DNA of 64,000 bases from an uncultured Planctomycetia bacterium (GCA_964497315.1 CAZCCH010000007.1:4503-68502), one strand, 5' to 3'; shown: positions 3,001 to 33,539, numbered from the stretch's first letter. Program-made: numbers and translations. Notes: generated from the letters alone by a model not told the origin.

Positions 3001-6000
3001 AAACTTCCAAAAAGATAACCAGATAAAGATAATCTGCACACCAACAGATGGAGAAGATGAGGGTACACCAAAAGAAAGTACAATCACAATCTCTAATTCA
3101 CCGCCATCGGTAACATCCGTTTCCATAACTCCAGACCCATCCTATATAGACGATATCTTAACAGCCACCCCCGCAGGCTGGAATGATGTAGATGGAGATG
3201 ATGAAGGTTATTTATATCAGTGGCATAATCAAGATGGAGCTATGGCAGGAGAGACTAATTCAACCTTAACCAATGCAAATTTTGATACCGCAGACCTGAT
3301 ACATTGCATAGTAACTCCTACCGATGGAATTGATACAGGTGAGCCTGAGAGCAGTGATGAGGTATTGATATATGATGTATATATCAGCCAGGGTGCGCAG
3401 TTGCACGACACCGCAGAATGGGAATTGGCTTTGGCCTGGTCGCTTGATAGTACAGAAATTGCATTCATACAACAATTTGCAGAAGGAAGCGAAGCTTTTA
3501 ATGTCTTCATAAAGACCGCTGATGGTTCTGGCCAGCCCGTTCAGGTTACGACTGACTCGGATAATGTAGTTTGGTCTTCTCAATTAAGCTGGGCGTATGA
3601 CGCAAGCAAGGTTGCATTTGTATCCAGGCCTGCAGATAAAGAAAAAATAATGCTGGCAAATGTTGACGGCTCAGGCGTCGAAACACTTTTGAGTGATGAT
3701 GCAATAGATTACAACAATCCATTTTTTGCCTGGATGCAACCTGATGAACAACGCAGGTTATTCTATGCAAAGGATTATGATATATACTGCGTTGCCGTCG
3801 ATACCAACGGCAGTATTGTTGGTGAAGAACTCCGGATAAGTGATTTAAGAGGTACGCATGATCGTTGTGTGGGTATTTCAGTTTCTCCTGATGGAGCAAA
3901 GCTCGCCTTCATAAATGATAGATCAGGCCAGCCAGGGGGGCATCGCGGCGTATATGCAATAGACAATCTCGAAAGTATTATTGATGGTTCAAGAGGAACA
4001 GTTGAACAATGGTCGGATTCTGATTTGATTAAGCTAGCAGACTTTTCTAATGGAAAGCTGGAGACCTCCTGGTCCCGCAGTGGCTCAATGGTCTATTTCA
4101 GCGTAGATTCTAACGATGTCTATGATCCATCTGGATATCCTAATTTGAATACAGTGTATACAGGATGCGATTTTGATGTATATAAGGTAAGCTCAGAAGG
4201 CGGCACAGCTTCTAAGGTTGACGATCAAGATTACAGTCAATGCCATATGCAATATTCGCCTGATGGCAATAGGATTTCCTATTGGAGTGATTTAGACGGA
4301 GACGGTGACATATATATAGTAACGCTTGCTGCGGGCAGTCCGAGTATTGTCCTTAAAGATGTGGTTACCGGTTCAGTTGAATACACCAATTCTCAGACGG
4401 TGAATGTCGAGCTGAGTGTTTTCAATGGAAGTTACTACATGAAAAGCGAAGACTCCAATTTCACAGATGCGGAATGGGTTGCCTCAACATTTCCCACAAC
4501 CGTTACACATACCTTCCTTACAGACACTGATGAAACCAAGACTGTCTATGCTAAGTTTAAAAACGACCTTGATGTTGAAAGTGCCGTAGTCAGTGATACT
4601 ATAGAACTGATTACAGAAATGCCAATTTTAGTTAGTATATCGTTATCTGATCAAAACACAGACTCGACTACAAAGACAAATGACCCTGTAGTAGATGTAG
4701 CTGTAAATGTAAGCGGTTCAGTGGCAGATATGATTTTGTCAGAAAATCCTGATTTTGCCGGCTCAGATTGGCAATTCTTCTTGGAAACAACTACCTTTAC
4801 CTTATCCAGCGGCGATAGAGAAAAGACAGTTTATTGCAAGGTAAGAAATATCGTTCAGAATGAAAGCAATACGGCAAGCGATGCAATCGCTTTAGATAGG
4901 CTAGGGCCCTCAGCAGTGTCTAACCTAATAGCTAACTGTCCTGTTGACAGCCGTGTTGTTAGCCTGGCATGGGAAAACCCGTCAGAGTCAGATTTCGAAA
5001 TGACAATGATAAGAAGGAAAACAGACAGTTATCCATCTGATAGAAATGATGGTACGCAAGTGTATTACGGTTCTGGTACCTCAGTTACAGATACTGTACC
5101 TGAAGAGAAAACCCAGTATTACTATAGGGCCTGGTCTCATGATGATATACAGAATTGGTCAGATGATTATGCCCAAAAAGAGGTAACCAGTGGCGACACA
5201 CAAGACCCGGACCAAATTGTAAACTTTACTGCCACTGCCAGCGATACGGAACTTAGCATAACCCTCAGTTGGGAAAGACCTGTATCTGATGATTATGCAG
5301 GTGTGGTGATTAGAAGAAGCACTGATTCTGCGCCTACGAACATTACTGATGGGGAACTCGTGGTTGATTCATCCCTTACATCTTATGAGGATGAGAGCCT
5401 AAAAGAATATACCCATTACTATTATTCAGCCTTTTCCTATGATGACATCGGCAGATATAGCCCTTCTGTGTCGGCAAATACCAGAACAGGCGATTTTTCT
5501 CTGCCATTTGTTGAAGACTTAAAGCCACAGAACGGGACAGCACAAATACCCTGCGATACAAATATCTTACTGCATATAAAAGATACCCTTAGCGGCGTAG
5601 ATAGAGATTCCATTGTTTTAGAGGTAAACGGTGAGGATATCAACCTGATAAATCCTGAAGTTGTTTTAGAGGAACAACGGGAAGATTTTCAGCCCTATGC
5701 CTTTATAGCAGGAACGCCGCAGGATTATCTGATAGCTTATGACTCACAAGAAGATTTTAATTCTGAGCAAGAAGTAAATGTATCCATTCAGGCAAATGAC
5801 CTTTACTCAATAACCAACCGACTAAGCTATGAATATTCTTTCATAACGCAAATGATGGATATCGGGGGAAATGTTAGGGTTAATGATCCTGCGATTGCAA
5901 CCCCTGATTTAACTACTCAACCTCAGTCCTCAATTGCGATTGGAGGAGGCAATGCCAAAAACATCTATGTTGCATGGGAGGTCAAAGGCGGGACAGGGAA

Positions 6001-7699
6001 TGACTGGGATATCTATTTTGCTAAGTCTATAGATTCAGGTAGCAGTTTTAGTGAGAGTAAAAAGGTATACGAAGACTTGGGAGGGTTTAATCAGAGAAGG
6101 CCTCAGATTGCAATCGACAGTAGAGGCAATATTTTTATAGCGTATCAAGGTCAGGATGAAGGAGGCAATACCAATATTTACCTTACAGCCTCAAGTGATG
6201 GCGGAGAGACATTTGACTCCCCCAGGCTGATAAATGAAAATCTGCTTTTGGCAGAGTCGCCTTCTATAGCCATATCAAACAACAATCGTATACATCTGGC
6301 CTGGACGGAGCACACAGAAGCAGGTAATTGGGTAGTATACTATACTCTGTTAAGAAATTTTTCAGCCAATGCCGGTGAGATAATCAGGGTCGACGATGGA
6401 ACATTTACTAGTTTTAGAGGTACGCCTTTACTTAAACTTACTCAAAGCGGAGATCCGCATGTTGTTTTCTGTGGCAATAAAGGCGCAGGCTTTCATATAT
6501 ACCTTTCAAAACAAGAAGGAAGTGATTTTACTAGCCCTGTGCAAATAGATGCAAGCACAGCAGTCGCTGACTCACCAACCTTTGACATTTCTGCGAATGG
6601 AAGAAATATCTATGTAGCATGGGTGGACACAAGAAGTAGCAAGAAAGATATATGTTTTGCAAAATCCACAGATTCCGGAGCAAACTTTACAGAGACAACC
6701 CAAATTACTGATGATTCACTGCAGTTGGATAAAATATCGCCGCGTCTTTGTATAGACTCTCAACAGAAGGTGTACCTGGCTTGGTCTGACATGAGAAACG
6801 ATGACGGTGATATTTACTTTGCGCAGTCTTTGGACGGCGGTACATCTTTTGGCACCAACATATTAATAAACGATGATGCAGGCAGTGCCTGGCAGGGAAA
6901 TCCAGTTCTGGCAATAGATAATTCAGCAAAACATGTATATTTTATCTGGTCAGATGCCAGAAACGAAAAAATCGAGGTATGCTTTAGCAAGAATTCAACA
7001 GCCGAAGTCCATTCTTCTAACTTAATAGAGCCTGAAGAAGGTGGTTCAGTTACAGTTGAAGAAGGTTCGGATATTGAAGGGACCACTGTAACCATACCGC
7101 AGGGTGCCCTGGAGGTAGATACGAATATTTCTATTGGCCAAGTGGATAGTCCGCCGGAATTCACGACATTGGCCAACATTGCATTCGTCGGTAAAGCAAT
7201 AAGCCTGGGGCCAGGAGGTACAACATTTGGAGCTCCAATAACGATAAGGATTCCATATACGCAGGCAGATTTGGATACAGTTGGTGTACCTGCGGCAAAT
7301 TTAGCGATATATTACTATAACGAGACGACGACAATTTGGGAAAGGTTGCCGAGTGTTGTGTACCCTACGTACGTGGAGGCCCAGATAGAGCATTTCTCAT
7401 TGTTTATCTTAGGCGGTGAGGCTGTATTAGGCGGCCTTTTGTATAACATGGGCCTTGGGAGTTGTTTCATAGCCACCGCTGCCTATGGTACGCCTTTAGC
7501 AGATGAAGTTGGCATCCTTTGCGAATTCAGGGATAGGCATTTATTGAAAAATGAATTAGGCAGAAGATTTGTCAGGTTTTACTACAAGACGAGCCCGCCA
7601 ATCGCAAAGACTATATCGAAAAGCTGGCTGCTGAAGAAAATCGTCCGGTTTTTACTCCGGCCCATAGTGGAGGTTGTAAGCAGATGTATTACAATGTAG
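1..7699 (+). CDS. Giant multidomain secreted/surface glycosidase-like protein (5'-partial, >=2562 aa). Domain order: CBM-like N-terminus; clan GH-A (GH2-type) TIM barrel; FN3; cadherin/Ig-like; ~90-aa tandem repeats; PD40/TolB-like beta-propeller; FN3 x2; BNR/Asp-box beta-propeller; Cys-containing C-terminal tail.
   Basis: ORF 11..7699 opens with TTG and the frame stays open to the window edge, so the 5' end is probably outside. Acid/base-like WSVGNEQN and nucleophile-like ITEFGVDAY match the GH2 pattern (E. coli beta-glucuronidase TEYGVD). FN3 signatures TLTWD..GYNIYR..TYYYLVTAVN and LAWENP..YYYRAWSHDD. PD40-like SPDGAKLAF and YSPDGNRISY. Asp-boxes SIDSGSSF, SSDGGETF, STDSGANF, SLDGGTSF. Tail GSCFIATAAYGTPLADEVGILCEFRDRHLL. 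Confidence 0.8.
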   Translation, partial: PNFLNARKYNVFSLRIKSEQVNPDIVLKLEDNDEVPARRMSVNLTDYSTVDGTWRTIDIPLSDFTYKDYSINDLYSVALIFMNASGTIYIDDIMFKYDPSLEPVDSAHLPTVKPPSEGMVQIIGNKLCINGQPFFAKSVGYQPTPVGQHGGSWDKTQSAIFQRDFPLIKAMGVNTIKTWSEVSSEMMYEATQHGLMVVAGFYIDGSEDFTDSGVKDRIKTAFREYVNDFKDSPNLLIWSVGNEQNRVYAGDDLSDWYSFANELAQIAYEEEGGSYHPVLIDNAGIGYVGYAQKAADDDSLTYVDVWGLSFYRPRGENINFAFADVFEKTHKPVFITEFGVDAYDDDTGTEDQSAQAAWDGDLWNDLSVAENCIGCSVFEYSDEWWKFSSGSVSEHDAGGWAVSVDGVAPDNYSNEEFYGLVFIEDNGDSVDNVHTRLAYNTLQERYYRTGRLFLEITRPATPTNISASILSGNDVTLTWDVVSGDIAGYNIYRSQESGGGFIRLNSSSIASTSYIDTGVQEGNTYYYLVTAVNSDHIPVEGAASEEIEIDANPNEAPTIIGLPDRDLDEDTTANDITDLWTYAQDDNDTDAQMVFSITANTEPDCGVTIDSNRYIDIAPTGNWFGTSEVTIRVTDRGGLYDEDIFTITVDSVNDAPTISSVSITPDPAYTNSTLTTVVSGWNDAEGASEDYIYQWWEYDGDEWEEIDDQTSNTLTGSFFQKDDQIKIICTPTDGEDEGTSQEDIITISNAVPTPPTVDITPSSPTTDDNLICAITGHSTDSDSDPISYSYAWYKDGELQAGLTTNTVLATFTSRNEIWRCEVRGDDGTAYSTAGTVQVQIDNFIPTASNLSITPSNPKTTDTIRADYTYSDPDSDPESGSRIRWYRDEEVQAGCNDQTTVPSTATQKGESWYFTVEPSDGASFGTMVTSSTVTILNSTPNITSVSIIPVLAFTETDLIAIPAGWYDADGDDEAYLYQWQENQGGSWYDIESATSSTLDHANFQKDNQIKIICTPTDGEDEGTPKESTITISNSPPSVTSVSITPDPSYIDDILTATPAGWNDVDGDDEGYLYQWHNQDGAMAGETNSTLTNANFDTADLIHCIVTPTDGIDTGEPESSDEVLIYDVYISQGAQLHDTAEWELALAWSLDSTEIAFIQQFAEGSEAFNVFIKTADGSGQPVQVTTDSDNVVWSSQLSWAYDASKVAFVSRPADKEKIMLANVDGSGVETLLSDDAIDYNNPFFAWMQPDEQRRLFYAKDYDIYCVAVDTNGSIVGEELRISDLRGTHDRCVGISVSPDGAKLAFINDRSGQPGGHRGVYAIDNLESIIDGSRGTVEQWSDSDLIKLADFSNGKLETSWSRSGSMVYFSVDSNDVYDPSGYPNLNTVYTGCDFDVYKVSSEGGTASKVDDQDYSQCHMQYSPDGNRISYWSDLDGDGDIYIVTLAAGSPSIVLKDVVTGSVEYTNSQTVNVELSVFNGSYYMKSEDSNFTDAEWVASTFPTTVTHTFLTDTDETKTVYAKFKNDLDVESAVVSDTIELITEMPILVSISLSDQNTDSTTKTNDPVVDVAVNVSGSVADMILSENPDFAGSDWQFFLETTTFTLSSGDREKTVYCKVRNIVQNESNTASDAIALDRLGPSAVSNLIANCPVDSRVVSLAWENPSESDFEMTMIRRKTDSYPSDRNDGTQVYYGSGTSVTDTVPEEKTQYYYRAWSHDDIQNWSDDYAQKEVTSGDTQDPDQIVNFTATASDTELSITLSWERPVSDDYAGVVIRRSTDSAPTNITDGELVVDSSLTSYEDESLKEYTHYYYSAFSYDDIGRYSPSVSANTRTGDFSLPFVEDLKPQNGTAQIPCDTNILLHIKDTLSGVDRDSIVLEVNGEDINLINPEVVLEEQREDFQPYAFIAGTPQDYLIAYDSQEDFNSEQEVNVSIQANDLYSITNRLSYEYSFITQMMDIGGNVRVNDPAIATPDLTTQPQSSIAIGGGNAKNIYVAWEVKGGTGNDWDIYFAKSIDSGSSFSESKKVYEDLGGFNQRRPQIAIDSRGNIFIAYQGQDEGGNTNIYLTASSDGGETFDSPRLINENLLLAESPSIAISNNNRIHLAWTEHTEAGNWVVYYTLLRNFSANAGEIIRVDDGTFTSFRGTPLLKLTQSGDPHVVFCGNKGAGFHIYLSKQEGSDFTSPVQIDASTAVADSPTFDISANGRNIYVAWVDTRSSKKDICFAKSTDSGANFTETTQITDDSLQLDKISPRLCIDSQQKVYLAWSDMRNDDGDIYFAQSLDGGTSFGTNILINDDAGSAWQGNPVLAIDNSAKHVYFIWSDARNEKIEVCFSKNSTAEVHSSNLIEPEEGGSVTVEEGSDIEGTTVTIPQGALEVDTNISIGQVDSPPEFTTLANIAFVGKAISLGPGGTTFGAPITIRIPYTQADLDTVGVPAANLAIYYYNETTTIWERLPSVVYPTYVEAQIEHFSLFILGGEAVLGGLLYNMGLGSCFIATAAYGTPLADEVGILCEFRDRHLLKNELGRRFVRFYYKTSPPIAKTISKSWLLKKIVRFLLRPIVEVVSRCITM
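2156..2218 (+). repeat. ~62-nt near-identical intragenic direct repeat, partner at 3005..3067, marking ~90-aa tandem protein modules
   Basis: ttccaaaaagat(g/a)accagataaagataatctgcacaccaacaga(c/t)ggagaagatgaggg(a/t)ac at both sites; encodes FQKD(D/N)QIKIICTPTDGEDEGT. Confidence 0.85.
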
Positions 7700-13709: not shown

Positions 13710-13726
13710 AATTATCACCACCAAAT

Positions 13727-14749: not shown

Positions 14750-14778
14750 TTGACATATTATCATACATGTGGTATACT
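14750..14778 (+). promoter_or_regulatory. Sigma70-type promoter TTGACA-17 nt-TATACT upstream of the antitoxin gene
   Basis: TTGACA at 14750-14755, 17-nt spacer, TATACT at 14773-14778. AGGAGG RBS at 14794-14799 and ATG at 14808. Confidence 0.5.
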
Positions 14779-14807
14779 TTAAGTAACCTTAAAAGGAGGT
14801 GCTGAAG

Positions 14808-15602: not shown

Positions 15603-15975
15603 CATACGTAAACTCGCTGAATTCGAAAAGGATTTTAAGAAACTTGTTAAAAAGTTCAGAACGCTTGACGAAGATCTAAATGCCTTTATCGTTAATCAGC
15701 TAAAGCTTGCCCATAAATTAGACATTGATAATAAAGGCGTTGTCAGAATATCCGATCTCGGCATTGAACACCCAAAGATATATAAAGCCAGAAAATTTGC
15801 TTGCAAGACATTAAAAGGTAGAGGTGCCGTAAGCGGTATCCGTATTATATATGCATATTATGAGCAGGATGATGTTATCGAATTTGTGGAAATTTATTAC
15901 AAGGGAAATAAAGACAATGAAGACAAGGAAAGAATTTTAAAATACTATAAAAAGAGAGGTCAAAATGGCAACTAA
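15583..15975 (+). CDS. RelE/ParE-superfamily-like toxin (tentative)
   Basis: 130 aa. C-terminal pattern GAVSGIRIIYAYYEQDDVIEFVEIYYKGNKDN resembles the RelE/ParE beta-sheet core (RiiY..d...v.i..i..H). Overlaps the antitoxin gene end by 20 nt. Confidence 0.4.
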   Translation: MTKIFNDIRKLAEFEKDFKKLVKKFRTLDEDLNAFIVNQLKLAHKLDIDNKGVVRISDLGIEHPKIYKARKFACKTLKGRGAVSGIRIIYAYYEQDDVIEFVEIYYKGNKDNEDKERILKYYKKRGQNGN

Positions 15976-17393: not shown

Positions 17394-19640
17394 ATGAGAA
17401 GAAAGTTTTCGATAATCTTACTTTTATGTTTGGTCTTTGCGGGGTTTTCAGCGCACAGTACTTTTGCTGAACAATCACAAGAAGCCAAAGAGCCTGTTGT
17501 GTTGAATTTTTGGGAGCTTAGTGTAGGTGAAGAGCTTATGCGCGAGCTTTTGGATAAGTTTGAAAAAGAAAACCCGCACATTAAAGTAAGACTCCAGCAG
17601 CTTTCATGGGATTATGGTTTTGATAAGATAATACTTTCTATTGCAGCTGGTAATGCCCCTGATGTATGCGAGCTAGGTACAGACTGGGTGCCGAAGTTTT
17701 CATCAAGTGGTGTCCTTTTGGATATAACAGACGATGTCCAGGAGATAAAAGACGACTACCTCCTATGGGAACCCACCTACTACAAAGACAGAATTTATGG
17801 AGCCCCCTGGCTTGCTGGCACGAGGGTCATGTTTTACAACAGAGACCTTTTTTTTAAAGCAGGCCTAGACCCAGATAAACCCCCTACGACATGGGATGAG
17901 TTATTAAAGGCCGCAAGAAAAATACACAAACTAGGACCTGATGTCTATGGTTTTGGGATGTTTGCTGCTGAACCTTATGCACCCTGGCAGCAGTTTTTAC
18001 CGTTTGCCTGGGGAAACGGGGGAAGTGTTTTAAGTAAGGATTTATCAAAGGTAACAATAAACTCTCCTGAGGTTACAGAGGCCCTCCAGTTTTACAACAA
18101 GCTAAGGGATTACTCCATAGTTGACCGCCAACCCCAGATAAATACTATGTTTGCTCAAGAAAAGGTAGGTATACAGATATCAGGGTTTTGGAATTTTAAA
18201 CTTATCCCTAGGTTTAACCCTAAACTAAATTTCGGTGTTGCCCTCCTTCCGAAGCCCTCCTTATATAAAGGTTTTAGGGCAGCATTCGCAGGTGGGGAAA
18301 TTTTTGTAGTACTAAAAAATACAAAATACCCTAAAGAAGCACTAAAACTTATAAAGTTTTTAATAAAAGAAGAACATACCTTAGAGATAGTAAAGGTTCA
18401 GCATAATGTAGTGCCTACAAGTAAAACTTCATTAGATCATCCCTATTATAGAGCCCACCCGAATGAAAAGATTTTCTTCAAGCAAATGCTTACTGCCGTA
18501 GCCCCCCCAAATCATCCAGACTGGGTTTCCATACAGGAGGAGGTTACAAAACTCATAGAAGAGGTCATAATAGGTAACAAGCCTGTTAAAGAGGCCCTAG
18601 ATAGCGCTGCTTTTCGTATCGATGGGATATTAAAAAGAGAAAAGGTAACGGGACGCCTTACTGATAAATTGATAGCGCTTATAATTTGTATATTGGCACT
18701 CCTTTTAATAGTTGGTACATATATCACAAGAAAGATAAAAAAGAAAAAGTCCCAGATGCAGTTTTCTTTAAGGAAGCACTATACAACCCTGATATTTTTA
18801 TCGCCCTGGGTTGTGACATTTTTGGTTTTTGGAATTTATCCATTAGTTTACTCTGTAATAATAAGTTTGTGTAAATACAATCTTTTGAGTTCCCAGCTTA
18901 CATTTGCAGGATTAAGTAACTTTATAAGTGTTTTAAAAGACGTAGAATTCAGGCGCGCCGTGTGGCATACAATATATTTTGCTGCTGGCACCATACCATT
19001 TACAATGGCAATGGCGCTTTTTTGCGCGGTGTTGATAAATCAAAAAATACCTTTTAAGCAGCTTTACCAGGCAGGTCTTTTTATACCGGTTGCCACTTCA
19101 GTAATAGTTATAGCAACTATCTTTAGTTTTATCTATTCACCAGGGGGGCTTTTAAATGCAACTTTAGCAAAATTACAACTACCGTTTCCCAAGCCTAGCT
19201 GGCTTATGAATATAAAGTGGGCCTTACCTTCTATTATGTTTATGAATGTATGGGCAAGTTTTGGATACTACATGGTATTATTTTTAGCAGGCCTTCAGAC
19301 AATACCAAGCTCCTTGTATGAAGCAGCTTCTATAGATGGCGCAAATGAATGGCAACAATTCTGGCATATTACCTTGCCGCAGTTACGACCCATAATGCTT
19401 TTTGCAATGGTAATAAATACAATACGTACCTTCCAGGTGTTCCCTGAAATATTTGCTATGACAAGAGGAGGGCCTCTTGGGTCTACTACAACAATAGTTT
19501 ACTATCTATATGAAAAAGGCTTCCATAAATTCCAGATGGGCGAAGCGGCAGCTGTTGCGTATCTATTGTTTTTCATGATATTGGGATTTTCTCTTATACA
19601 GATGAAGTTTTTTAAGATGGGAGAGCAGACGGCAGAATGA
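17394..19640 (+). CDS. Fusion protein: carbohydrate ABC-transporter solute-binding protein (family 1) + ABC permease (MalF/UgpA-like)
   Basis: Signal peptide, then about 430 aa of SBP-like sequence. Linker TM, then a permease with EAA loop EAASIDGANEWQQFWHITLPQLRP. 748 aa in total. Confidence 0.7.
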   Translation: MRRKFSIILLLCLVFAGFSAHSTFAEQSQEAKEPVVLNFWELSVGEELMRELLDKFEKENPHIKVRLQQLSWDYGFDKIILSIAAGNAPDVCELGTDWVPKFSSSGVLLDITDDVQEIKDDYLLWEPTYYKDRIYGAPWLAGTRVMFYNRDLFFKAGLDPDKPPTTWDELLKAARKIHKLGPDVYGFGMFAAEPYAPWQQFLPFAWGNGGSVLSKDLSKVTINSPEVTEALQFYNKLRDYSIVDRQPQINTMFAQEKVGIQISGFWNFKLIPRFNPKLNFGVALLPKPSLYKGFRAAFAGGEIFVVLKNTKYPKEALKLIKFLIKEEHTLEIVKVQHNVVPTSKTSLDHPYYRAHPNEKIFFKQMLTAVAPPNHPDWVSIQEEVTKLIEEVIIGNKPVKEALDSAAFRIDGILKREKVTGRLTDKLIALIICILALLLIVGTYITRKIKKKKSQMQFSLRKHYTTLIFLSPWVVTFLVFGIYPLVYSVIISLCKYNLLSSQLTFAGLSNFISVLKDVEFRRAVWHTIYFAAGTIPFTMAMALFCAVLINQKIPFKQLYQAGLFIPVATSVIVIATIFSFIYSPGGLLNATLAKLQLPFPKPSWLMNIKWALPSIMFMNVWASFGYYMVLFLAGLQTIPSSLYEAASIDGANEWQQFWHITLPQLRPIMLFAMVINTIRTFQVFPEIFAMTRGGPLGSTTTIVYYLYEKGFHKFQMGEAAAVAYLLFFMILGFSLIQMKFFKMGEQTAE

Positions 19641-20932
19641 AACGCTCCTCGATTATAATAACAAGTTGCATAGTTATTCTAACCATTGTCTTAATATTGA
19701 CTATGGTCCCACTTATATTGATGTTTCATACATCCATTAAGACAGGTGGAACCCTTTTTGAGAACGTGGACCAAATTTTAGTTGCAGATTTTGATAGGGG
19801 TACAACTAACTCTATAGGTGGGCCTATTGCTGTAAATGTAGGCGTACCTTCCTGGGTGAATTTTTCATTTTTAGAAGATACAGCAAAGGGTGGTCGATTT
19901 GTTCAGATAGATTTCTTTAAAGAAACACAAGGTGAAGCAATATGGTGGACAAGGCTTGGACAAGATATGCGCAGGTTCTCAAGGCTTGAGGTGTTAGTTA
20001 GGGGTTTAAGTGGAGACGAAAGCTTTAGCTTGGGCTTTAGGGATGTTAAGGGGCGAAAGACACTTTTACCTATTTCAAATTATACAAAGGATGGCTTAAA
20101 GGATGTCTGGCAAAAAATAGTAATCCCAACGAGGGATTTTGATTTTTCTTTAATAAACCCCAAGTTTAGAGAAAAGTCTGCAGAAGATTTTATTATAAGC
20201 TTTAATAAGCCATCAAGTGGCGCTATCCAAATTGACGATGTCAGACTTTATTTTCGTCCTTTTACCTTAGATAATTATGTAGATGTATTAATAAGTGGAC
20301 CATTTGGAAGGTATTTCTTTAATAGTGCCTTTATTGCATTTATAGTTGTCGGGGGAAATCTATTATTTAGTTCAATGGTAGGTTATGCCTTTGCCAGGAG
20401 AGATTTCCCATGGAAGAACCTTTTATTTATTTTGATATTAGGTTCTTTAATGATACCGCCACAGGTTTTCATGGTACCTGTTTTTATTTTAATGAAAAAC
20501 CTAAACTGGTTAAATACATATTGGGCCTTGACTTTGCCTACTTTGGTAACGCCATTCAATGTATTTTTAATGCGCCAATATATAAGTAAACTTCCTACAT
20601 CATTAGAAGACGCAGCCAGAATAGACGGTGCAAATGATTTTCAAATATTTTTTAAAGTGATAATGCCACTGGCCACACCTGCATTAGCAGTTGTTGGCAT
20701 AAATACTTTTATGGGCACCTGGAATACCTTCCTGTATCCGTTTATCTTAACAAATACCCCTCAAATGAGAACATTGCCAGTAGGTTTGGCTTTGTACAAA
20801 AGTCTGCAAGGTGTTGACTGGGTTCACCTAATGGCTGGTTCAGGTATTACCGCCATTCCTGTAATAATAGTCTTTTTGGCCTTTCAAAGGTATATCATAG
20901 CAGGACTTACCGCCGGATCTACTAAAGGATAA
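19637..20932 (+). CDS. Carbohydrate ABC-transporter permease (MalG/UgpE-like) with a ~190-aa CBM-like extracytoplasmic insert after TM1
   Basis: EAA loop EDAARIDGANDFQIFFKVIMPLATPAL. Insert residues about 40-210 end in GAIQIDDVRLYF, resembling the tails in the giant ORF (GTIYIDDIMF) and the Wzy-like fusion (GSMYIDEFEFF). Confidence 0.7.
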   Translation: MKRSSIIITSCIVILTIVLILTMVPLILMFHTSIKTGGTLFENVDQILVADFDRGTTNSIGGPIAVNVGVPSWVNFSFLEDTAKGGRFVQIDFFKETQGEAIWWTRLGQDMRRFSRLEVLVRGLSGDESFSLGFRDVKGRKTLLPISNYTKDGLKDVWQKIVIPTRDFDFSLINPKFREKSAEDFIISFNKPSSGAIQIDDVRLYFRPFTLDNYVDVLISGPFGRYFFNSAFIAFIVVGGNLLFSSMVGYAFARRDFPWKNLLFILILGSLMIPPQVFMVPVFILMKNLNWLNTYWALTLPTLVTPFNVFLMRQYISKLPTSLEDAARIDGANDFQIFFKVIMPLATPALAVVGINTFMGTWNTFLYPFILTNTPQMRTLPVGLALYKSLQGVDWVHLMAGSGITAIPVIIVFLAFQRYIIAGLTAGSTKG

Positions 20933-20936
20933 AAAA

Positions 20937-21935
20937 ATGAAACTAGGTGTTAGCTATTTTGGAAATAGGATGCCGCAGTCTGTAGAAGAGGACATGAAAA
21001 AAATCAAAGACAACGGCTGTAATTTTATTGTGCACACATTTAGTGAAACAGACCTTGAGTATTACCCAGGCACAATGGAGAAAATAGTTAACTCTTCTAA
21101 AAAATGCGGCCTTGAGGTATGGCTTGATCCCTGGGGGGTTGGTAGGGTATGGGGCGGCGAGAGTTATTCTGAACTTATTGCAAAAGATTTAGATGTACGC
21201 CAGATTAATGCAGAGGGCCATTCTTTACCTATAGCCTGTTTAAACAACCCTAGTTTTGTAGAATTTATGAAAAAATGGACAGACGCTGCCTTACAATGCG
21301 GGGCTGATGTGTTGTTTTGGGATGAACCGCATTTTTATATTTATCCTGAGGATGAAGGTTGCAGGGCGTGGGCGTGTAAATGTAAACACTGCCAAAAATT
21401 ATTCAAAAAAAGATTTAGCGAAGCTATGCCATCTCTTTTAAATGACAACCTAAGAGAGTTTAAGGAAGATTCAATAGTAGACTTTTTGACTAAGCTCTGT
21501 GATTATGCCAAAAAGAAAAACGTTATAAATAGTATGTGTTTTTTACCTTTTGAGAATTCCAGTACAGTCAATAATTGGGAGAAGGTGGCCAAGATAAAGA
21601 ATTTGGATATCATAGGTAGTGATCCATATTGGCGAAAAGGCCAGAGCGAAGAAGAGATAATAGAGCGCGTTGGTAGTTTTTCAAAGAGGATTCAAGATTT
21701 ATCTTTGAAGCATAACAAAGAAGGTCAGATTTGGATACTGAACTTCGCTATAGAAAAAGGAAAAGAATCAGATATAGAGTTAGCTGTTGAGACTGCATAC
21801 AAAGAAGGAATAAGAGATATTGCTGCATGGAGCTATTATGGCACCGCACAGATGTCGTCATTAGCCTGTGATGACCCTGAAACTACATGGAAGACATTAG
21901 GAAAGGTTTATAAAAGGTTAAGCAAATTGCCTTGA
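20937..21935 (+). CDS. Hypothetical protein; TIM-barrel hydrolase/epimerase-like guess, with CxCxHC cluster
   Basis: 332 aa, no signal peptide. Motifs GVSYFGN, WLDPWG, FWDEPHF, CKCKHC. Function not recognisable from sequence alone. Confidence 0.25.
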   Translation: MKLGVSYFGNRMPQSVEEDMKKIKDNGCNFIVHTFSETDLEYYPGTMEKIVNSSKKCGLEVWLDPWGVGRVWGGESYSELIAKDLDVRQINAEGHSLPIACLNNPSFVEFMKKWTDAALQCGADVLFWDEPHFYIYPEDEGCRAWACKCKHCQKLFKKRFSEAMPSLLNDNLREFKEDSIVDFLTKLCDYAKKKNVINSMCFLPFENSSTVNNWEKVAKIKNLDIIGSDPYWRKGQSEEEIIERVGSFSKRIQDLSLKHNKEGQIWILNFAIEKGKESDIELAVETAYKEGIRDIAAWSYYGTAQMSSLACDDPETTWKTLGKVYKRLSKLP

Positions 21936-22006
21936 CATGCCCAATAAGGCGTGGTAAAATCATTTAAAATTAAATTGTAAAGTTTAGAATAAAGTCGAGG
22001 GAAAAA

Positions 22007-23212
22007 ATGAAAAACCCTAATGTAGATAATCATAATTTTTCCGATAAAGAACGGAAAAACCTGGCTGTTTTGGAGTCAATAAAAAGAAATGGCCCAATAA
22101 GCAAGGCTGACATCTCCAAGATGACCAAGTTAAACATAGTTACAGTTTCAAATTATGTTAACACCTTTATTGAAAAAGGGTTAGTAATTGAAAAAGGCTT
22201 AGATGTTTCAAGTGGTGGACGCAGGCCAACAATGGTAGAACTAAGTCCTAAGGCCAATTATGTCATTGGCATAGACTTGGGTGTTAATAATATTATAGGT
22301 ATCCTTGGTGATTTGGATGCAAAGGTAATTCGCAAAGAAAAAGCAAAGAGGCCAAAGGACAGCGCAGAAAAGGTAATAAATACTATTGTTGAAATCATAG
22401 GCAAACTAATAAAGACCCCTGATGTAGACTCTAATAAGATAGCAGGTGTCTGTATAGGTGCCTCTGGAGTAATAGATAAAGAAGCAGGTACAGTCCGCTG
22501 TACAGAAGGTGTAGCAAGTATTTATGTGCCTATAAACAATATCCTAGAGCAAAAATTCGGTATTTCTACATTTATAGAGCATGATGCCACAGCAGCTGCT
22601 TATGGCGAGTGGTCATTAGGCTTAGGTGCTGAGGCAAGGGTTATGCTATATATGTATTCAGGTGTTGGCTGTGGGATTATAATAAACGGTGAGATATATC
22701 ATGGTGTCAGTGGAACTGCAGGTGAGGTAAGCCTTAAGGATTTGGTAGATTATTCATCTCACTGGGCCACTGAAACAGAGATATTAAAACCTTGGGCATT
22801 GCATTTAGGTCTACCAGATGCTGCAAAAAAGATCCTAGAAGAAAAGGGTTCTGACTCAAAGATATTCAAAGAAGCAGGTGGAGACCCCACAAAGATAACC
22901 ACAGATATAATATTCAGGGCTGCTAAAGAGAATGATAAACTCGCAGTTGAGCTTTTAAAAAAGGCAGGTGAGAGGCTTGGCGTGAGAATTTCATTTTTAG
23001 TAAATCTTCTAAATCCAGGTGTTGTGATTATCGGTGGTGGCATAGAACAAGCTGGCCCACCGCTTTTAGATACAATAAAGCAGATGATTAAGGCTTGCTG
23101 CTTTGAAGAAATGGCCGAGGCTGTAAAGATTATCCCAGCCCGGCTTGGGGAAGATGCCGTAGCCTTAGGCTCAGCGAGTCTTGTTATAAGAAGTGTTTTT
23201 GCACAGGCATAA
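22007..23212 (+). CDS. ROK-family transcriptional regulator (NagC/Mlc-like)
   Basis: N-terminal winged HTH LAVLESIKRNGPISKADISKMTKLNIVTVSNYVN. ROK sugar-kinase fold motifs GIDLGVNNIIG and HGVSGTAGEV. Confidence 0.7.
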   Translation: MKNPNVDNHNFSDKERKNLAVLESIKRNGPISKADISKMTKLNIVTVSNYVNTFIEKGLVIEKGLDVSSGGRRPTMVELSPKANYVIGIDLGVNNIIGILGDLDAKVIRKEKAKRPKDSAEKVINTIVEIIGKLIKTPDVDSNKIAGVCIGASGVIDKEAGTVRCTEGVASIYVPINNILEQKFGISTFIEHDATAAAYGEWSLGLGAEARVMLYMYSGVGCGIIINGEIYHGVSGTAGEVSLKDLVDYSSHWATETEILKPWALHLGLPDAAKKILEEKGSDSKIFKEAGGDPTKITTDIIFRAAKENDKLAVELLKKAGERLGVRISFLVNLLNPGVVIIGGGIEQAGPPLLDTIKQMIKACCFEEMAEAVKIIPARLGEDAVALGSASLVIRSVFAQA

Positions 23213-23298
23213 AATAGAATAAATAGTCTTAAGCCTACCTGATTAACCCCTAGAAAACATAAAGATAGAAATTGAAATGGTAATAAAGGAGGATACGT

Positions 23299-25662
23299 AT
23301 GCAATACGGTCATTTTTCAGAAGATAGAATGGAGTATATAATTACTAGACCAGATACGCCCAAACCATGGTTTAATTATTTGTTTAATAATTCCTATCAT
23401 GCACTTATCTCACAAACCGGAGGTGGTTTTAGTTATTATAAAGACCCGAAGTTTTATAGATTTTCAAGATACGATCACCTTTCAACCGACAGACCCGGTC
23501 GGTATTGTTTTATAAGAGATACAAAGACAAAAGATGCATGGAGTATTAATTGGCAGCCTGTTAGAAAAAAATTACAGAGCTGGCAATGTAGGCATGGGCT
23601 AGGCTACACAACGATAAATGCAAAAAATAAAGGGATATCTTCTGAATTGAGTTATATCGTTACACTTAAAGACCCCGCAGAATTATGGAAGGTAAAACTT
23701 ACAAACAATTCTAAAACTAAAAGGCGCTTAAAATTATTTCCCATGCTTGAGCTTATATGCGGGGATGTAGCCCTTGAGATACACTACAAAAACATCCTTA
23801 TGCTTTACAACCAGGCTAACTTTAATAAAAAACTTAAGGCAATAGTTGCATTTAAACATACATTTATCGCTGGGAAAGATTTTGGATTTGGGTTTATGGC
23901 GACAGATCAAGAGATAGAGAATTTTGATACAGTCCGTGATGCCTTCTGGGGTCCTTACAATGACTGCGGTATTCCTTTAGCTGTCTCAAATGGCAAATGC
24001 TCCAATAGCGAATGCCGCGGAGAAGAAATGTTATCCGCCTTAGAGATAGACGTAGAGTTAGAGGTTGGCGAAAGCAAGGAAATTGTTTTAGTAACGGGTT
24101 ATGCTGAAAAACAAGCAGATATTGAAAAGTTAATTGATAAATATGGTTCTGTAAAAAAGTTTGATGCAGAACTTGGAAAAATTAAAAAACACTGGAAGGC
24201 TGAAGTTGAAAGGCTTTATGTAAAAACCCCTGATGATGATTTTAACACAATGGTAAATATATGGGGTAAGTACCAGCTTTTTGCAATAACCCACTGGCGT
24301 GGGACTTCACACTATCATGGCGTAGAAGGAGGCTTGGGTTACAGGGATACCGCTCAAGATGCCGAGGGGCTTTTTTCACAAGATGCAAAGCTTGCAAAGG
24401 AAAAGCTAGAGAAGATTTTGTATTATCAGTATAATTGCGGGCATGCAGTCAGCGGGTTTTCAGATATTGAAGGTACCTGGGAGAAGATGGGCCAGGCAGG
24501 CCTTGTAATGAAGGCCGATGTAGCAGTATGGCTTCCCTATGCTGTTGTCTCATATCTTAAAGAAACAGGAGATTTTGATTACCTTGATAAAGTGGTACCT
24601 TTCCATGATGGCGGAGAGGCGACAGTCTATGAACATGTTTTAAGAGCAATAAGGTATCTATTTTCTGCTGTTGGCAAACACGGACTTCCTTTAATAGGAA
24701 AAGCTGATTGGAATGATGCCTATGATGCAGTTGGTATAAAAGGAAAAGGTGAAAGCATCTGGCTTGGTATGGCATTATGCCGGGCATGCAAACAGGTTGC
24801 AGAACTTGCAGATTATATCGGTGACTCGCATATAGCTGATGAGATGATGAAGATGTATGAAAAGATGCGCAAGGCTGTAAATAAAGCAGGTTGGGATGGC
24901 GATTGGTACCTGGCTGCATTTAATGATGAGGGCCTCAAGATCGGTTCAAAGCAAAATAAGGAAGGAAAAGTACCTTTAAATAGTCAGACATGGGCGATAT
25001 TAAGTGATGTGGTTACAAAAGAGAGACTTCCAAAGATATTACGCAAGATAGATAAATATCTTGATACGGATTTCGGACCGGCGCTATTTTTACCATCTTA
25101 CACCTCTTACAACCCAGGCATAGGCCGTGTTACTGCCTTTGCCGAAGGGACAAAAGAAAACGCCGCTGTATTTTCACATGCCTGTGCCTTTAAGATTGTA
25201 TCTGATTGTACACTTAAAAGAGCAAAAGAGGCCTTTGATACATACAAAAAGCTTTGCCCGATGAATAAGGCAAAACACGACCACGAAAAGTACAAGGTAG
25301 AGCCTTATGTCTGGTCAGAGTATGTCGTAGGCCCCGGCTCTAAGCATAGATTTGGAGAGGGTGCTTTTACATGGAACACAGGTACTTCTCCTTGGATGTT
25401 TACTGCTGCAACAGAGTGGATTCTAGGTGTGCGCAGAGAATTTAAAGGGCTTTTGATTGATCCATGCATACCAAGTAAATGGAAGGAATGTTTTATTAGA
25501 AGACCATTCAGAGGGGCAGTATATGAAGTTACAATAAAAAATCCCAAGGGCAGCACTCACGGTGTAAAGATAGTTTTAGTAGATGGTAAGGTGCAGACTT
25601 CAAATTTGATAATTCCTCATAGAGATGGAAAAACGCACAGAGTAGAAGTAGTAATGAAATAG
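23299..25662 (+). CDS. GH94 family glycoside phosphorylase (cellobiose/chitobiose/cellodextrin phosphorylase-like)
   Basis: 787 aa. N-terminus YGHFSEDRMEYIITRPDTPKPWFNYLFN..ALISQTGGGFSY matches the conserved GH94 N-terminal region. RBS AAGGAGG upstream. Confidence 0.7.
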   Translation: MQYGHFSEDRMEYIITRPDTPKPWFNYLFNNSYHALISQTGGGFSYYKDPKFYRFSRYDHLSTDRPGRYCFIRDTKTKDAWSINWQPVRKKLQSWQCRHGLGYTTINAKNKGISSELSYIVTLKDPAELWKVKLTNNSKTKRRLKLFPMLELICGDVALEIHYKNILMLYNQANFNKKLKAIVAFKHTFIAGKDFGFGFMATDQEIENFDTVRDAFWGPYNDCGIPLAVSNGKCSNSECRGEEMLSALEIDVELEVGESKEIVLVTGYAEKQADIEKLIDKYGSVKKFDAELGKIKKHWKAEVERLYVKTPDDDFNTMVNIWGKYQLFAITHWRGTSHYHGVEGGLGYRDTAQDAEGLFSQDAKLAKEKLEKILYYQYNCGHAVSGFSDIEGTWEKMGQAGLVMKADVAVWLPYAVVSYLKETGDFDYLDKVVPFHDGGEATVYEHVLRAIRYLFSAVGKHGLPLIGKADWNDAYDAVGIKGKGESIWLGMALCRACKQVAELADYIGDSHIADEMMKMYEKMRKAVNKAGWDGDWYLAAFNDEGLKIGSKQNKEGKVPLNSQTWAILSDVVTKERLPKILRKIDKYLDTDFGPALFLPSYTSYNPGIGRVTAFAEGTKENAAVFSHACAFKIVSDCTLKRAKEAFDTYKKLCPMNKAKHDHEKYKVEPYVWSEYVVGPGSKHRFGEGAFTWNTGTSPWMFTAATEWILGVRREFKGLLIDPCIPSKWKECFIRRPFRGAVYEVTIKNPKGSTHGVKIVLVDGKVQTSNLIIPHRDGKTHRVEVVMK

Positions 25663-25671: not shown

Positions 25672-26997
25672 ATGTCATTAAAAGTAGGTGTTTCAGGGGT
25701 TAGGGGAATATTTGGAAAATCTTTGACGAAAAATATAGCAGAGGTTTTTGCCTATGCCTTCGGTAAGTTTTGTAAAGGTAGAAAGATTTTAATAGGAAGT
25801 GACACACGTATAAGCGGACCACAAGTAAAAAAAGCCGTTATAAAAGGCCTTTTAAAATCAGGTGCAAAAATAATAGATTTGGGAATTTGCTCAACACCTA
25901 CAGTTTTATTTATGACAAGGAAGCTAAAGGCCGCAGGCAGCATTATAATAACCGCAAGTCATAATCCCAGGGAATGGAATGGTTTGAAGTTTGTAAGATG
26001 TGACGGTACATTTTTAAATGCTTCTGAGGCAAAAAAATTCTATGATATCTATTACAAAACAAAACCAATTCCTAAAAAACCAACCCCTAAAAGAAAAATC
26101 AACTTCCAAAAGAATGCAATAGATTTACATATAAAAGAAGTCTTGAAGCATTTAGATGTAAAATCCATAAGAACTAGAAAATTTAAAGTTGCTATTGATT
26201 ATTGCAATGGCACAGGCGCTGTAAGCACACCTAAGTTTTTAAAAAAACTAGGTTGTAAGGTTTTTCCAATAAATACAAAACCCGACGGTAAATTTGCACA
26301 TAATCCAGAACCTACTCCAAAAAATTTAGCACAGCTTTCTAAATTAGTTAAAAGAACTAAGGCAGATGTAGGTTTTGCACAAGACCCTGATGCAGATAGA
26401 CTTGCTGTTGTATCAGAGGCGGCAAAACCAATAGGTGAAGAAAATACACTCACACTTGCAGTTAAATATGTATTGTCAGGTTCAAAAAAGCAAAGAGTTG
26501 TTGTAAATCTATCTACTTCTCGTATGATAGATGATATCGCAAAAGAGTTTAGTGCGAAAGTTTACAGAACTGCAGTAGGGGAAACAAACGTTGTCAATAA
26601 AATGCGCAAGATTAATGCTATTATAGGTGGCGAGGGAAACGGTGGTGTGATTTATCCTGCTGTAAATTTTGGCAGGGATAGTTTTGTAGCAATGGGTCTA
26701 ATCTTACAATATATGGCTGCATCAAAAGAAAAAATTTCAAAATTAGTTAGTTTAATTCCACAATATAAAATGGTTAAGGTAAAATTTGAATGCAGTGCAG
26801 GAAAGACACCTGCAATTATTTCTAGAGTTAAAAAGAAATTTGGACATCAAAAGATTAATTACTTAGATGGTGTAAGAATTGATTGGCCAGATAGCTGGGT
26901 GCATATAAGGCCATCAAATACAGAGCCGATTATAAGAATTATCGCAGAGGCAAAAAGCATAAACAAGGCAAGACAATTAGCGAAAGAAGTTTTTTAG
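25672..26997 (+). CDS. Phosphoglucomutase/phosphomannomutase (alpha-D-phosphohexomutase superfamily)
   Basis: Active-site Ser loop IITASHNPREWNGLKF. Metal-binding DPDADRLAV. Sugar-binding GGEGNGG. Confidence 0.8.
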   Translation: MSLKVGVSGVRGIFGKSLTKNIAEVFAYAFGKFCKGRKILIGSDTRISGPQVKKAVIKGLLKSGAKIIDLGICSTPTVLFMTRKLKAAGSIIITASHNPREWNGLKFVRCDGTFLNASEAKKFYDIYYKTKPIPKKPTPKRKINFQKNAIDLHIKEVLKHLDVKSIRTRKFKVAIDYCNGTGAVSTPKFLKKLGCKVFPINTKPDGKFAHNPEPTPKNLAQLSKLVKRTKADVGFAQDPDADRLAVVSEAAKPIGEENTLTLAVKYVLSGSKKQRVVVNLSTSRMIDDIAKEFSAKVYRTAVGETNVVNKMRKINAIIGGEGNGGVIYPAVNFGRDSFVAMGLILQYMAASKEKISKLVSLIPQYKMVKVKFECSAGKTPAIISRVKKKFGHQKINYLDGVRIDWPDSWVHIRPSNTEPIIRIIAEAKSINKARQLAKEVF

Positions 26998-31700: not shown

Positions 31701-33539
31701 ATGTTACCTTCAAGCAAAAAGGAAGAATTTAATATAGCAGACTACTGGCAGGTTATCCAGAAAAGAAAATGGGTTATTATAGCTAGTTTTTTAACCTTTT
31801 TTACAATCGTTGCCATTTATACTTTCAGAATGGTTCCTATCTATAGAGCCACAGCTGTGATTTTAATAGAAAGGCAGCGTCCAAAGGTAGCGCCAGTACA
31901 GGGAATGTATAACGTTAGGCTGATAGATAGAGAGTTCTACCAAACCCAATATCGAATATTGAAATCTAGATCTTTGGTAAAATTGCTATTTGAAGAGTTG
32001 AATTTGTATATAGATCCCGAATTTGCTGATTTAGATGATTCTATAGGCAGCTTCCTTAACAGGGTAACAGTAGAACCAGTAAAAAAAAGCAAATTAGTAG
32101 ACTTGAGCTTTGACGGCCCTGATCCTAATAAGGTTACTAAGATAGTCAATACCTTAGCAGGGCAATACATAAAGCAGGATGTGGAAAATGCAGCCAAGGT
32201 TTCCAGAAGCGCGGTAGAATGGCTATTAGGCCAAGTAGATACTCTAAAGGAGAGAGTAAGAGAGTCGGAAGAGGCACTCCAGAAATTCAGGGAAGAACAA
32301 AAAATAGTTATTACGCCAGAGTCTGAAAGAGAAATGACTACATTGATAGAGGTTTTAAAGAAGAAAGAAGCGCAGCTAGTAATAGAACTATCAGAGTTCT
32401 CTGAGAAATATGGCAAGAAACATCCTAAGATGATTATGCTGGAATCGGAATTGACATCTGTGAGAGCGAAGTTGGATCTTGAAACCAAAAAAGCCATTAC
32501 TATAGGCCAGGCAGGTATACAATTTAATGTACTGCAACGTGAAATGGAAAGCAATAAGCGACTATATGAAGCTCTTCTGAAGAAAGCGAAAGAAACAGGA
32601 GTAACAGAAGAATTACAAGTTAGCCAGATTAGGATTGTGGATAAAGCAGAAATACCTAAAAGTCCTATAAAGCCTGATAGAAAAATGAACCTCGGATTAG
32701 GTGCTTTTATGGGACTTGCGTTAGGTATTGCTCTGGTTATGTTCCTGGAATACATGGATAATACACTTAAAAATCCAGAAGACGTAGAGCAATGTTTAGA
32801 ACTTCCATTTCTTGGGTATATTCCTTCTAGCAAAAAAGAGGCAAAGAATGTCAACAAAATAGATTTGCTAGTACATCAACAATCCAAATCTGTAGTTTCA
32901 GAAGCCTATAGAGCCATAAGGACTGCTATGATTTTTGCCTTTGCGGATAAATCTACCAAGAGTATATTGATTACTAGCGCAGGACCACAGGAAGGCAAAA
33001 CTACCGTCAGTATAAATTTGGCTACTATTATGACCCAGGCTGGAGATAAGGTGCTTTTGATTGATGCAGATATGCGGTGTCCAAGAGTGCATAAGAGTTT
33101 TGAACTTGATATCAACAATGGCCTGAGCGAAATTCTGGTAGGAAAGATAAGCTTGGATTCTGCCATAAAGAAGACAGAGATTCCGAACCTTAGCGTTATT
33201 ACCTGTGGTTCCATACCTCCAAACCCTGCTGAACTCTTGGGTACTCAGAAAATGAAGGACTTTCTAAATGAAGTAAGCAGTAAATTTGACAGGGTTATAT
33301 TTGATTCTCCTCCCATCATAACTGTTACAGACTCCTCCATATTGGCCAATATAGTAGATGGTGTTGCCTTTGTAATCCAAGGAGGAAAAACTGCTATCGA
33401 ACTCGCATTACGGGCGAAGCAGAGATTGCAGAATGCCAAAGCCAATGTATTAGGAATAATATTAAATAATGTAGACATGGCTAAAGAGAGCTACTATTAT
33501 TACTATTATTCCTACGGATCCGATACCAAAAAGACCTAA
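31701..33539 (+). CDS. Polysaccharide co-polymerase with C-terminal BY-kinase (Wzc/EpsB-type tyrosine autokinase)
   Basis: Two TMs flank a periplasmic coiled-coil Wzz-like domain. Walker A SAGPQEGKTTVSINLA, Walker A' VLLIDADMR, Walker B VIFDSPPI. C-terminal Tyr cluster YYYYYYSYGS. Confidence 0.85.
   Translation: MLPSSKKEEFNIADYWQVIQKRKWVIIASFLTFFTIVAIYTFRMVPIYRATAVILIERQRPKVAPVQGMYNVRLIDREFYQTQYRILKSRSLVKLLFEELNLYIDPEFADLDDSIGSFLNRVTVEPVKKSKLVDLSFDGPDPNKVTKIVNTLAGQYIKQDVENAAKVSRSAVEWLLGQVDTLKERVRESEEALQKFREEQKIVITPESEREMTTLIEVLKKKEAQLVIELSEFSEKYGKKHPKMIMLESELTSVRAKLDLETKKAITIGQAGIQFNVLQREMESNKRLYEALLKKAKETGVTEELQVSQIRIVDKAEIPKSPIKPDRKMNLGLGAFMGLALGIALVMFLEYMDNTLKNPEDVEQCLELPFLGYIPSSKKEAKNVNKIDLLVHQQSKSVVSEAYRAIRTAMIFAFADKSTKSILITSAGPQEGKTTVSINLATIMTQAGDKVLLIDADMRCPRVHKSFELDINNGLSEILVGKISLDSAIKKTEIPNLSVITCGSIPPNPAELLGTQKMKDFLNEVSSKFDRVIFDSPPIITVTDSSILANIVDGVAFVIQGGKTAIELALRAKQRLQNAKANVLGIILNNVDMAKESYYYYYYSYGSDTKKT

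Follow-up and report, generated by a model that had tools for sequence, protein, structure and literature searches.

What would a carbohydrate-binding domain be doing inside the membrane subunit of a sugar importer? The question is raised by a permease gene (positions 19637-20932) on a stretch of 64,000 nt of DNA from an uncultured Planctomycetia bacterium (GCA_964497315.1, CAZCCH010000007.1:4503-68502), which is referred to here as the window. A previous reading of the window, made from the sequence alone (the sequence-only reading), noted a beta-sandwich resembling a carbohydrate-binding module (CBM) behind the first transmembrane helix (TM1) of this ATP-binding cassette (ABC) permease. It went on to propose that the same module had been grafted onto three unrelated proteins, the others being a giant surface protein and a Wzy-like polymerase; the three domains are termed here B (permease), A (giant protein) and C (Wzy-type protein). 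Sequence profiles and structural modelling show insert B as a complete, predicted beta-jelly-roll of the CBM30/CBM11 type, placed in the first periplasmic loop of a sugar-importer membrane subunit. As a whole, the observation of one module in three proteins is partly confirmed.

The protein that carries insert B is a type I ABC importer permease of the MalG/SugB type. With 66.4 bits for BPD_transp_1 (PF00528; aa 247-421) it clears the Pfam cut-off of 26.4, and it has the EAA-type cytoplasmic loop EDAARIDGA; there is a 4-nt overlap between its ATG and the stop codon of the preceding gene. A hydropathy scan shows that about 200 hydrophilic residues separate TM1 from the next membrane segment. 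The alignment with SugB (7cad_B, E 3e-29) pairs residue 192 of the permease with SugB residue 38, and that with MalG (E 3e-21) pairs residue 225 with MalG residue 83. Thus the extra ~177 residues enlarge loop P1, the one that connects TM1 and TM2. MalG has three periplasmic loops, of which P1 can be cross-linked to the N-lobe of maltose-binding protein, MalE, and P1 is periplasmic in both solved homologues, SugB and MalG (PMC6906923). Judging from this homology and from an N-terminus that is short and carries positive charge, insert B would face the periplasm, as had been proposed, and the hydropathy pattern of TM1 followed by the insert is consistent with that placement.

The fold of insert B was modelled with AlphaFold2 (AF2) from an alignment of 25 homologous inserts. 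The model is all-beta, with a predicted local distance difference test (pLDDT) score of 89.5 and a predicted template-modelling (pTM) score of 0.85. A Foldseek comparison with the PDB gives as the top match the CBM11 structure 1v0a (CtCBM11), with template-modelling scores (TM-scores) of 0.71-0.73 and E 5e-9, and the CBM30 structures 2c24 and 1wmx are matched at 0.57-0.64. Likewise among the top matches are CIA30/NDUFAF1 (7zkq) and the flagellar sheath protein FlaA1 (9cyn). Insert B thus superposes on members of CBM11 and CBM30 as a jelly-roll, and the CBM-like beta-sandwich seen earlier after TM1 is upheld by the model.

Family assignment comes from profile comparisons. A profile of the 25 permease inserts matches, among PDB sequences, the solved CBM30 of C. 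thermocellum CelJ (1wmx/2c24; E 1.5e-7, positions 85-174), and the two have in common the blocks G..GGE.F and W..V.IPL and the final ..DDI strand. The insert's own sequence gives marginal CBM30 matches in the PDB. A homologue 59% identical to it (P0122) passes the Pfam CBM30 cut-off (29.5 bits against 27), and a match to this family, PF21582, is already precomputed in databases for most of the permease homologues listed in the search described below. A total of 138 relatives of insert B came from exhaustively searching 1.84 billion representative proteins; a word-index protein search with the insert alone gave no match. All of the 10 insert relatives that were scanned match Pfam CBM30, and all except the permease homologue also match CBM_11 or CIA30, with E down to 6e-44. 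The other relatives are large and multidomain, and some of them have glycosidase-like or pectin-lyase-type domains. In such proteins the module family is expanded to as many as six copies per protein, and the one of them that has a source name is from Omnitrophota.

Is the fusion a peculiarity of this genome? A profile search gave 2615 matches at E <=0.001, of which the best 120 were listed; one 294-aa fragment was set aside, which left 119. These are 310-463 aa long, mostly ~430 or 375-398 aa, and those among the best 120 of 2615 that carry a source name are all Candidatus Omnitrophica/Omnitrophota. The insert is present in every one of the 119, at full length or in a shorter form of ~110-130 aa. 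The short form is found in the 375-398 aa size class (P0349-P0376, and the gene at 8001-9149 of a related locus, L006) and matches the module in its C-terminal two-thirds only. Mean identity of the homologues to the window protein is 43% in the insert and 78% in the membrane domain, and at least 95% conservation is seen at 32 positions of the insert. An assembly artefact or chance gene fusion is rejected because the insert is kept in the 119 listed homologues and in five loci. As judged by these sequence comparisons, the permease-CBM fusion is old, phylum-wide in Omnitrophota, where the bacterium of the window is placed here, and older than this genome, and the notion of a module grafted by local shuffling does not hold for the permease.

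The five loci compared are that of the window and L004, L005, L006 and L007. In all five, the gene directly before the CBM-permease encodes a fusion of 742-760 aa between a solute-binding protein (SBP) and a permease. The window member has SBP_bac_1 (179 bits) and BPD_transp_1 (61.8 bits) within one open reading frame (ORF), and hydropathy places its extra transmembrane helix at aa 426-444, followed by KKKK. To our knowledge, tethered binding proteins are unusual in sugar importers of the CUT1 type.

Downstream of the CBM-permease, a ROK-family protein and a GH94 phosphorylase are encoded in four of the five loci. The GH94 of the window scores 511 bits against the cellobiose phosphorylase of C. 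thermocellum (3qde) and 440 bits against a chitobiose phosphorylase (1v7v). A phosphoglucomutase gene follows in three loci; the L004 locus ends before the position where one could occur. Domain scans found no ABC ATPase among the genes at 17394-26997. Sugar ABC systems commonly share an ATPase encoded elsewhere, and the ATPase of this importer may be encoded elsewhere too.

A role can be proposed on the basis of what is observed at the locus, namely the fold and family of insert B, its position between TM1 and TM2, its conservation in the listed homologues, the pairing with a tethered SBP and the operon partners. Insert B would sit where P1 of MalG touches the N-lobe of the binding protein, beside the docked, tethered SBP. 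It would bind oligosaccharides of the beta-glucan type and hold them near the tethered binding protein for hand-over, and it may additionally help to dock that protein. After import, a disaccharide would be phosphorolysed by the GH94 enzyme and the sugar-1-phosphate isomerised by the mutase. Glycan capture, possibly together with docking, is given a probability of roughly 0.6. It is suggested because the CBM11 and CBM30 relatives bind beta-glucans, the phosphorylase of the operon is of the cellobiose type and the kin of the module occur in large multidomain proteins. Characterised CBM11 and CBM30 modules bind beta-1,4 and mixed-linkage glucans.

Several observations weigh against capture. The insert's own sequence scores 14.8-17.2 bits against Pfam CBM30 (PF21582), which is under the 27-bit cut-off. 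The motifs best kept in the permease inserts, NSIGG and TRxGQDMRKF, are not general CBM30 features and therefore could be a protein-protein interface. CIA30/NDUFAF1 and FlaA1, which are protein-binding members of the fold and not known for sugar binding, are among the top structural matches, and thus the fold by itself is no proof of sugar binding. In addition, L006 has no GH94 gene, and an amidohydrolase gene is found in three of the four related operons, so that the substrate is uncertain.

Perhaps, then, insert B has kept the CBM fold without binding sugar and serves as a docking or gating platform for the tethered SBP, as the immunoglobulin-like (Ig-like) MalF P2 and MalG P1 do for MalE. 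Its position exactly in P1, the contact site of the binding protein N-lobe in the maltose system, would suit such a platform, as would the tethered SBP paired with it in five of five loci. So would the invariant polar motifs, which are specific to the permease family and not common to CBM30, and the finding that CIA30 and FlaA1 score as well as the CBMs. However, among solved structures the nearest in sequence are genuine CBM30 modules, some of the large multidomain proteins that carry the module's kin bear glycosidase domains, and the substrate class of the beta-glucoside phosphorylase fits the ligands of CBM11 and CBM30. It should be pointed out that docking and sugar binding are not mutually exclusive. 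A platform that binds no sugar is accordingly taken as possible but rather unlikely, and glycan capture is preferred.

The amidohydrolase (Amidohydro_1) gene lies between the permease and a gene for a protein of about 330 aa in L004 (11286-12530), L005 (11306-12487) and L007 (9307-10542), and the window is without it. With it, the substrate in some lineages could be an amino sugar. Chitobiose, at which the amidohydrolase hints, is not favoured as the substrate, at least by sequence scores, because the GH94 enzyme scores higher against cellobiose phosphorylases. Where the GH94 gene is missing, in the Omnitrophota locus L006, three stand-alone CBM30 proteins of 199, 398 and 776 aa adjoin the transporter on the minus strand (11410-15601), the 776-aa protein also having a CBM9.

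How close is insert B to copy A? The giant protein is complete on a longer public contig (L001, 1-10016), where it has 3758 aa, and copy A lies at about aa 1127-1293, with a module start ~200 nt upstream of the window. Copy A is therefore internal and not at the N-terminus of the giant protein, where it had been placed. The protein has LTD, fn3, Big_9, BNR-like and Tricorn-like regions, and its only CBM_11 module precedes the glycosidase-like barrel; the module profile finds no match in ~2400 aa of its other beta-rich domains. Giant proteins of this type have been reported for Omnitrophota (bioRxiv 10.1101/2023.11.21.568195).

Completed from L001, copy A scores 77-79 bits against the module profile (77.2 bits, positions 7-173 of the hidden Markov model, HMM) and passes Pfam CBM_11 (PF03425; 34.1 bits, E 3.7e-8, cut-off 27); the part within the window reaches 19.2 bits by itself. 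A BLASTP alignment of A and B is significant (E 9e-5, 25% identity). The profile built from database relatives of B matches A in the window at E 1.4e-17, and the profile of permease inserts only matches completed A at E 8.9e-11. The two motifs described by the sequence-only reading, G.I[YQ]IDD[IV] and W..I.IP..DF, occur in strict form exactly twice in the six-frame translation of the window. The two occurrences are A and B, where the motifs are in register, 32-37 aa apart; the third occurrence claimed, in C, was not found. A fourth marginal profile match, in the gene at 62156-64000, falls inside the ATPase domain of an ABC protein and was discarded as a false positive.

Among 259 module copies ranked by score, those from other large proteins come closest to A (59.9 bits), and B is 230th, at 7.5 bits. 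By sequence, then, A and B are homologous but deep paralogues, with A assigned to CBM_11 and the family of B to CBM30 by Pfam. A recent duplication within the genome from A to B is rejected on the same ranking.

Copy C is a different matter. The protein that ends in it has Wzy_C (PF04932) at 83.8 bits against a cut-off of 31.7, which identifies it at the family level, as ligase or polymerase. It aligns up to aa ~596 with a homologue, P0003, that has Wzy_C and tetratricopeptide repeats (TPRs), and the TPR-like region is assigned by that homology. The closest Wzy homologue (49% identity) is without copy C, and its TPRs continue instead. Hydropathy shows four hydrophobic segments after the large Wzy_C loop, so the tail would lie outside the cytoplasm, in the periplasm, to which an extra transmembrane helix would bring it.

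The broad module profile aligns copy C end to end (HMM 8-171) at 14.7-14.8 bits, which is the third-best match in the window and corresponds to E 1e-6 as a single comparison and to E 0.009 against 227 window fragments. The score exceeds that of the reversed sequence and of all 5000 shuffled sequences (maximum 11.3 bits). Three landmarks are ordered and in register, i.e. the initial ..LLEDFE strand, the Trp strand NWLQFEID, which lies ~39 aa from the end, and GSMYIDEFEF as the last strand. Of the two motifs, C matches the end motif in a relaxed form only, GSMYIDE, and its WRIFTVDIPL lies out of register, some 100 aa ahead of the end motif. Thus the C-terminal copy claimed for the Wzy protein stands as a weak end-to-end profile match, but not as a copy with W..I.IP..DF in place, a Pfam match or a good model.

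Several results count against placing C with the other two. BLASTP of C against A and against B is not significant, so that of the three segments only A and B align significantly by this means. The last ~175 residues have no Pfam match at E <=10, the permease-only profile gives a non-significant 4.1 bits, and a sequence comparison with the PDB found nothing meaningful. No relatives of C were found in GTDB genomes or JGI metagenomes, and in a search with the whole protein no homologue covers the tail (neither the word-index nor the exhaustive protein search was made with C alone). The single-sequence AF2 model of C is all-beta with low confidence (pLDDT 47.9), and its Foldseek matches are jelly-roll lectin and CBM domains, all with TM-scores <=0.44.

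It could be asked whether C is simply an unrelated beta-rich domain whose likeness, a DFE at the start and a YIDE at the end, arose by chance or convergence. The failures just listed, an hhalign probability of only 55% between C and the module, and the lack of homologues from which to build a profile all fit that explanation. They have to be set against the alignment over the whole profile with its landmark strands in order, a score that no shuffled sequence attains, and the Foldseek targets that the models of C and B have in common (9cyn, 2c26, 4xuo/4xup, 8ic1, 1wky and 9h99). An unrelated origin is thus unlikely, and C probably belongs to the CBM11/30-like superfamily. Another Wzy_C and TPR protein, P0004 (1067 aa), ends in a CBM_4_9-like domain (residues ~880-1067, E 3.1e-5) that is unrelated to copy C by BLASTP. 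Jelly-roll tails of the carbohydrate-binding type therefore seem to recur independently on Wzy_C and TPR proteins.

With the three domains characterized, the proposal that one module on three proteins reads one glycan epitope in uptake, degradation and biosynthesis, perhaps the exopolysaccharide (EPS) of the cell itself, can be considered. The three proteins do lie within 36 kb, A and B have the two motifs in register, and EPS genes are found within 10 kb of the transporter in three of five loci (the window, L005 and L006), a weak point of support. However, A is a CBM_11 and the family of B is CBM30, with only 25% identity and B far down the ranking of A's relatives; the permease fusion is older than this genome; C can barely be detected and is absent from the closest Wzy homologue. 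Nor does any result tie GH94 to EPS products or to the cell's own EPS, and the suggested recycling of EPS through the GH94/ABC locus is left without a basis. The three domains are too divergent to give reason to think that they bind one sugar, and a shared epitope is very improbable. The claim of the same module in three proteins is best restated: A belongs to the same superfamily as B in a different Pfam family, and the link of C is weak. They are distant relatives or look-alikes, acquired independently at different times, and not copies of one module.

Table. Features of the permease locus and of the genes for the giant and Wzy-type proteins (positions within the window).
Feature	Position	Strand	Basis
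Giant multidomain surface-type protein, 3' part (2565 of 3758 codons)	1..7699	+	ORF runs off the 5' end of the window
Copy A, CBM_11-type module, C-terminal ~100 aa	1..301	+	Profile match aa 5-97, E 1.4e-17
Glycosidase-like TIM-barrel region directly after copy A	362..1033	+	Glyco_hydro_2_C, E 1e-5, 25.3 bits, aa 121-344
Partner subunit, 748 aa: solute-binding protein (aa ~48-356), extra transmembrane helix, second permease domain	17394..19640	+	Pfam, hydropathy
MalG/SugB-type ABC sugar-importer permease with inserted domain, 431 aa	19637..20932	+	ORF; BPD_transp_1; SugB alignment
TM1 of the permease, aa 12-30, after the short N-terminus MKRSS	19670..19726	+	Hydropathy scan, mean Kyte-Doolittle 3.04
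Insert B, predicted CBM30/CBM11-type beta-jelly-roll, aa 34-210, periplasmic loop P1	19736..20266	+	AF2, Foldseek, family profile
Membrane domain TM2-TM6 with EAA-type motif EDAARIDGA	20267..20929	+	Pfam, SugB/MalG alignment
332-aa protein, no family assigned	20937..21935	+	ORF
ROK-family protein with N-terminal winged-helix domain (NagC/Mlc-type regulator architecture)	22007..23212	+	Domain scan
GH94 disaccharide phosphorylase, closest to cellobiose phosphorylase	23299..25662	+	Pfam GH94, 356 bits
Phosphoglucomutase/phosphomannomutase-family enzyme	25672..26997	+	Domain scan
Wzy_C (O-antigen ligase/polymerase family) membrane protein, TPR-like region, C-terminal beta-rich tail	33539..36004	+	Wzy_C aa 199-342
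Copy C, C-terminal domain aa 641-814, candidate very divergent CBM11/30-like jelly-roll	35459..35980	+	Module profile

The 332-aa protein encoded after the CBM-permease has no Pfam or PDB match; its sequence resembles, by impression only, a cytoplasmic enzyme of the TIM-barrel type. L004, L005 and L007 have, downstream of the permease with the CBM, unannotated genes for proteins of 330-343 aa, which are likened to it by size and position alone. Upstream of the transporter in the window, an antitoxin-type gene with HTH_3 and SocA_Panacea domains (267 aa) overlaps a 130-aa ORF at 14799-15975 on the plus strand, between a conserved upstream block and the transporter; the two are probably a toxin-antitoxin pair. 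Five minus-strand genes at 9121-14404 encode a HAD phosphatase and four poorly annotated proteins, one of them of 687 aa. A similar minus-strand block is found upstream of the transporter in L005, and only the HAD gene in L004.

Among the other genes of the window, a Wza-type exporter with Poly_export and SLBB domains (29070-31688, plus strand) has an N-terminal extension of ~500 aa, which is unusually long and has a weak match of the coiled-coil type. The gene at 62156-64000 (plus strand), which runs off the 3' end, encodes an ABC exporter (ABC_membrane and ABC_tran) with an N-terminal signal-peptidase-like domain (Peptidase_S26 E 3.6e-8, S24 E 5e-4). Where an ABC exporter has a peptidase domain, this is usually of the C39 type.

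No description of a CBM in the permease of an ABC importer was found in the open-access full texts searched, including some on Omnitrophota genomics, which agrees with the earlier remark that such a module is unusual there. Combined with a tethered binding protein, a CBM fold inside the permease makes a new form of a familiar kind of importer; taken by themselves, the modules are new members of families already described. ABC importers that have been characterised recognise their substrates through the binding protein, whether soluble or tethered, and their membrane subunits add no more than docking loops. A CBM fold in the permease, conserved across a phylum and paired with a tethered SBP, would be a second recognition element, integrated in the membrane. 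This raises the question of whether the pair of subunits represents a distinct, undescribed subclass of ABC sugar importers, in which a membrane subunit captures glycan chains at the surface of the membrane and feeds them to the binding protein. That is a tentative idea, and doubtful at present. If it were true, ultra-small Omnitrophota cells could scavenge longer beta-glucan oligosaccharides, possibly freed from the envelopes of prey or host by CBM-studded giant enzymes.

For the uncultivated Omnitrophota, whose physiology is sparsely described and whose CBM-rich giant proteins are presumed to serve in attacks on other cells, the locus also adds a concrete, conserved system of nutrient uptake. 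A caution concerns the short motifs in CBM11/30-like domains, which mark a very large, old superfamily and no shared ligand.

Comparison with known systems places insert B among domains that are familiar singly. The CBM30 of C. thermocellum CelJ/Cel9D-Cel44A (1wmx, 1wzx, 2c24) and the CBM11 of Lic26A-Cel5E (1v0a, 6r31) have the same jelly-roll (TM-scores 0.57-0.73). Copy A is like these modules in being attached to a glycosidase-like domain. They are appended to secreted cellulosomal enzymes, whereas insert B is found inside a loop of a polytopic membrane transporter and, unlike them, has the family-specific invariant NSIGG and TRxGQDMRKF. CIA30/NDUFAF1 (7zkq) and FlaA1 (9cyn) share the fold with insert B, and Pfam CIA30 matches relatives of the insert, but their biological contexts are different.

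Binding domains fused to the permease are known from the ABC importers OpuA and GlnPQ, which are osmolyte and amino-acid systems. The partner subunit resembles them in that the binding protein is tethered covalently to a membrane domain; unlike them, it belongs to a sugar (SBP_bac_1) system with a second permease that bears a CBM. The carbohydrate-binding domain of Wzt is on the nucleotide-binding subunit of an exporter, is cytoplasmic and recognizes the capped end of a lipid-linked polymer. This domain of the O-antigen exporter WzmWzt offers a precedent for a carbohydrate-binding beta-sandwich in an ABC transporter that recognizes the transported glycan (PMC9445017).

The maltose importer provides the other precedent. 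MalF-P2 (Ig-like, residues 91-276) is likewise a folded periplasmic domain of similar size in an importer permease, and MalG-P1, the same loop as that which holds insert B, contacts the N-lobe of the binding protein in MalFGK2-E but is short (PMC6906923). MalF-P2 differs from insert B in that it belongs to the other subunit, lies between TM3 and TM4, has no CBM fold and binds MalE rather than sugar.

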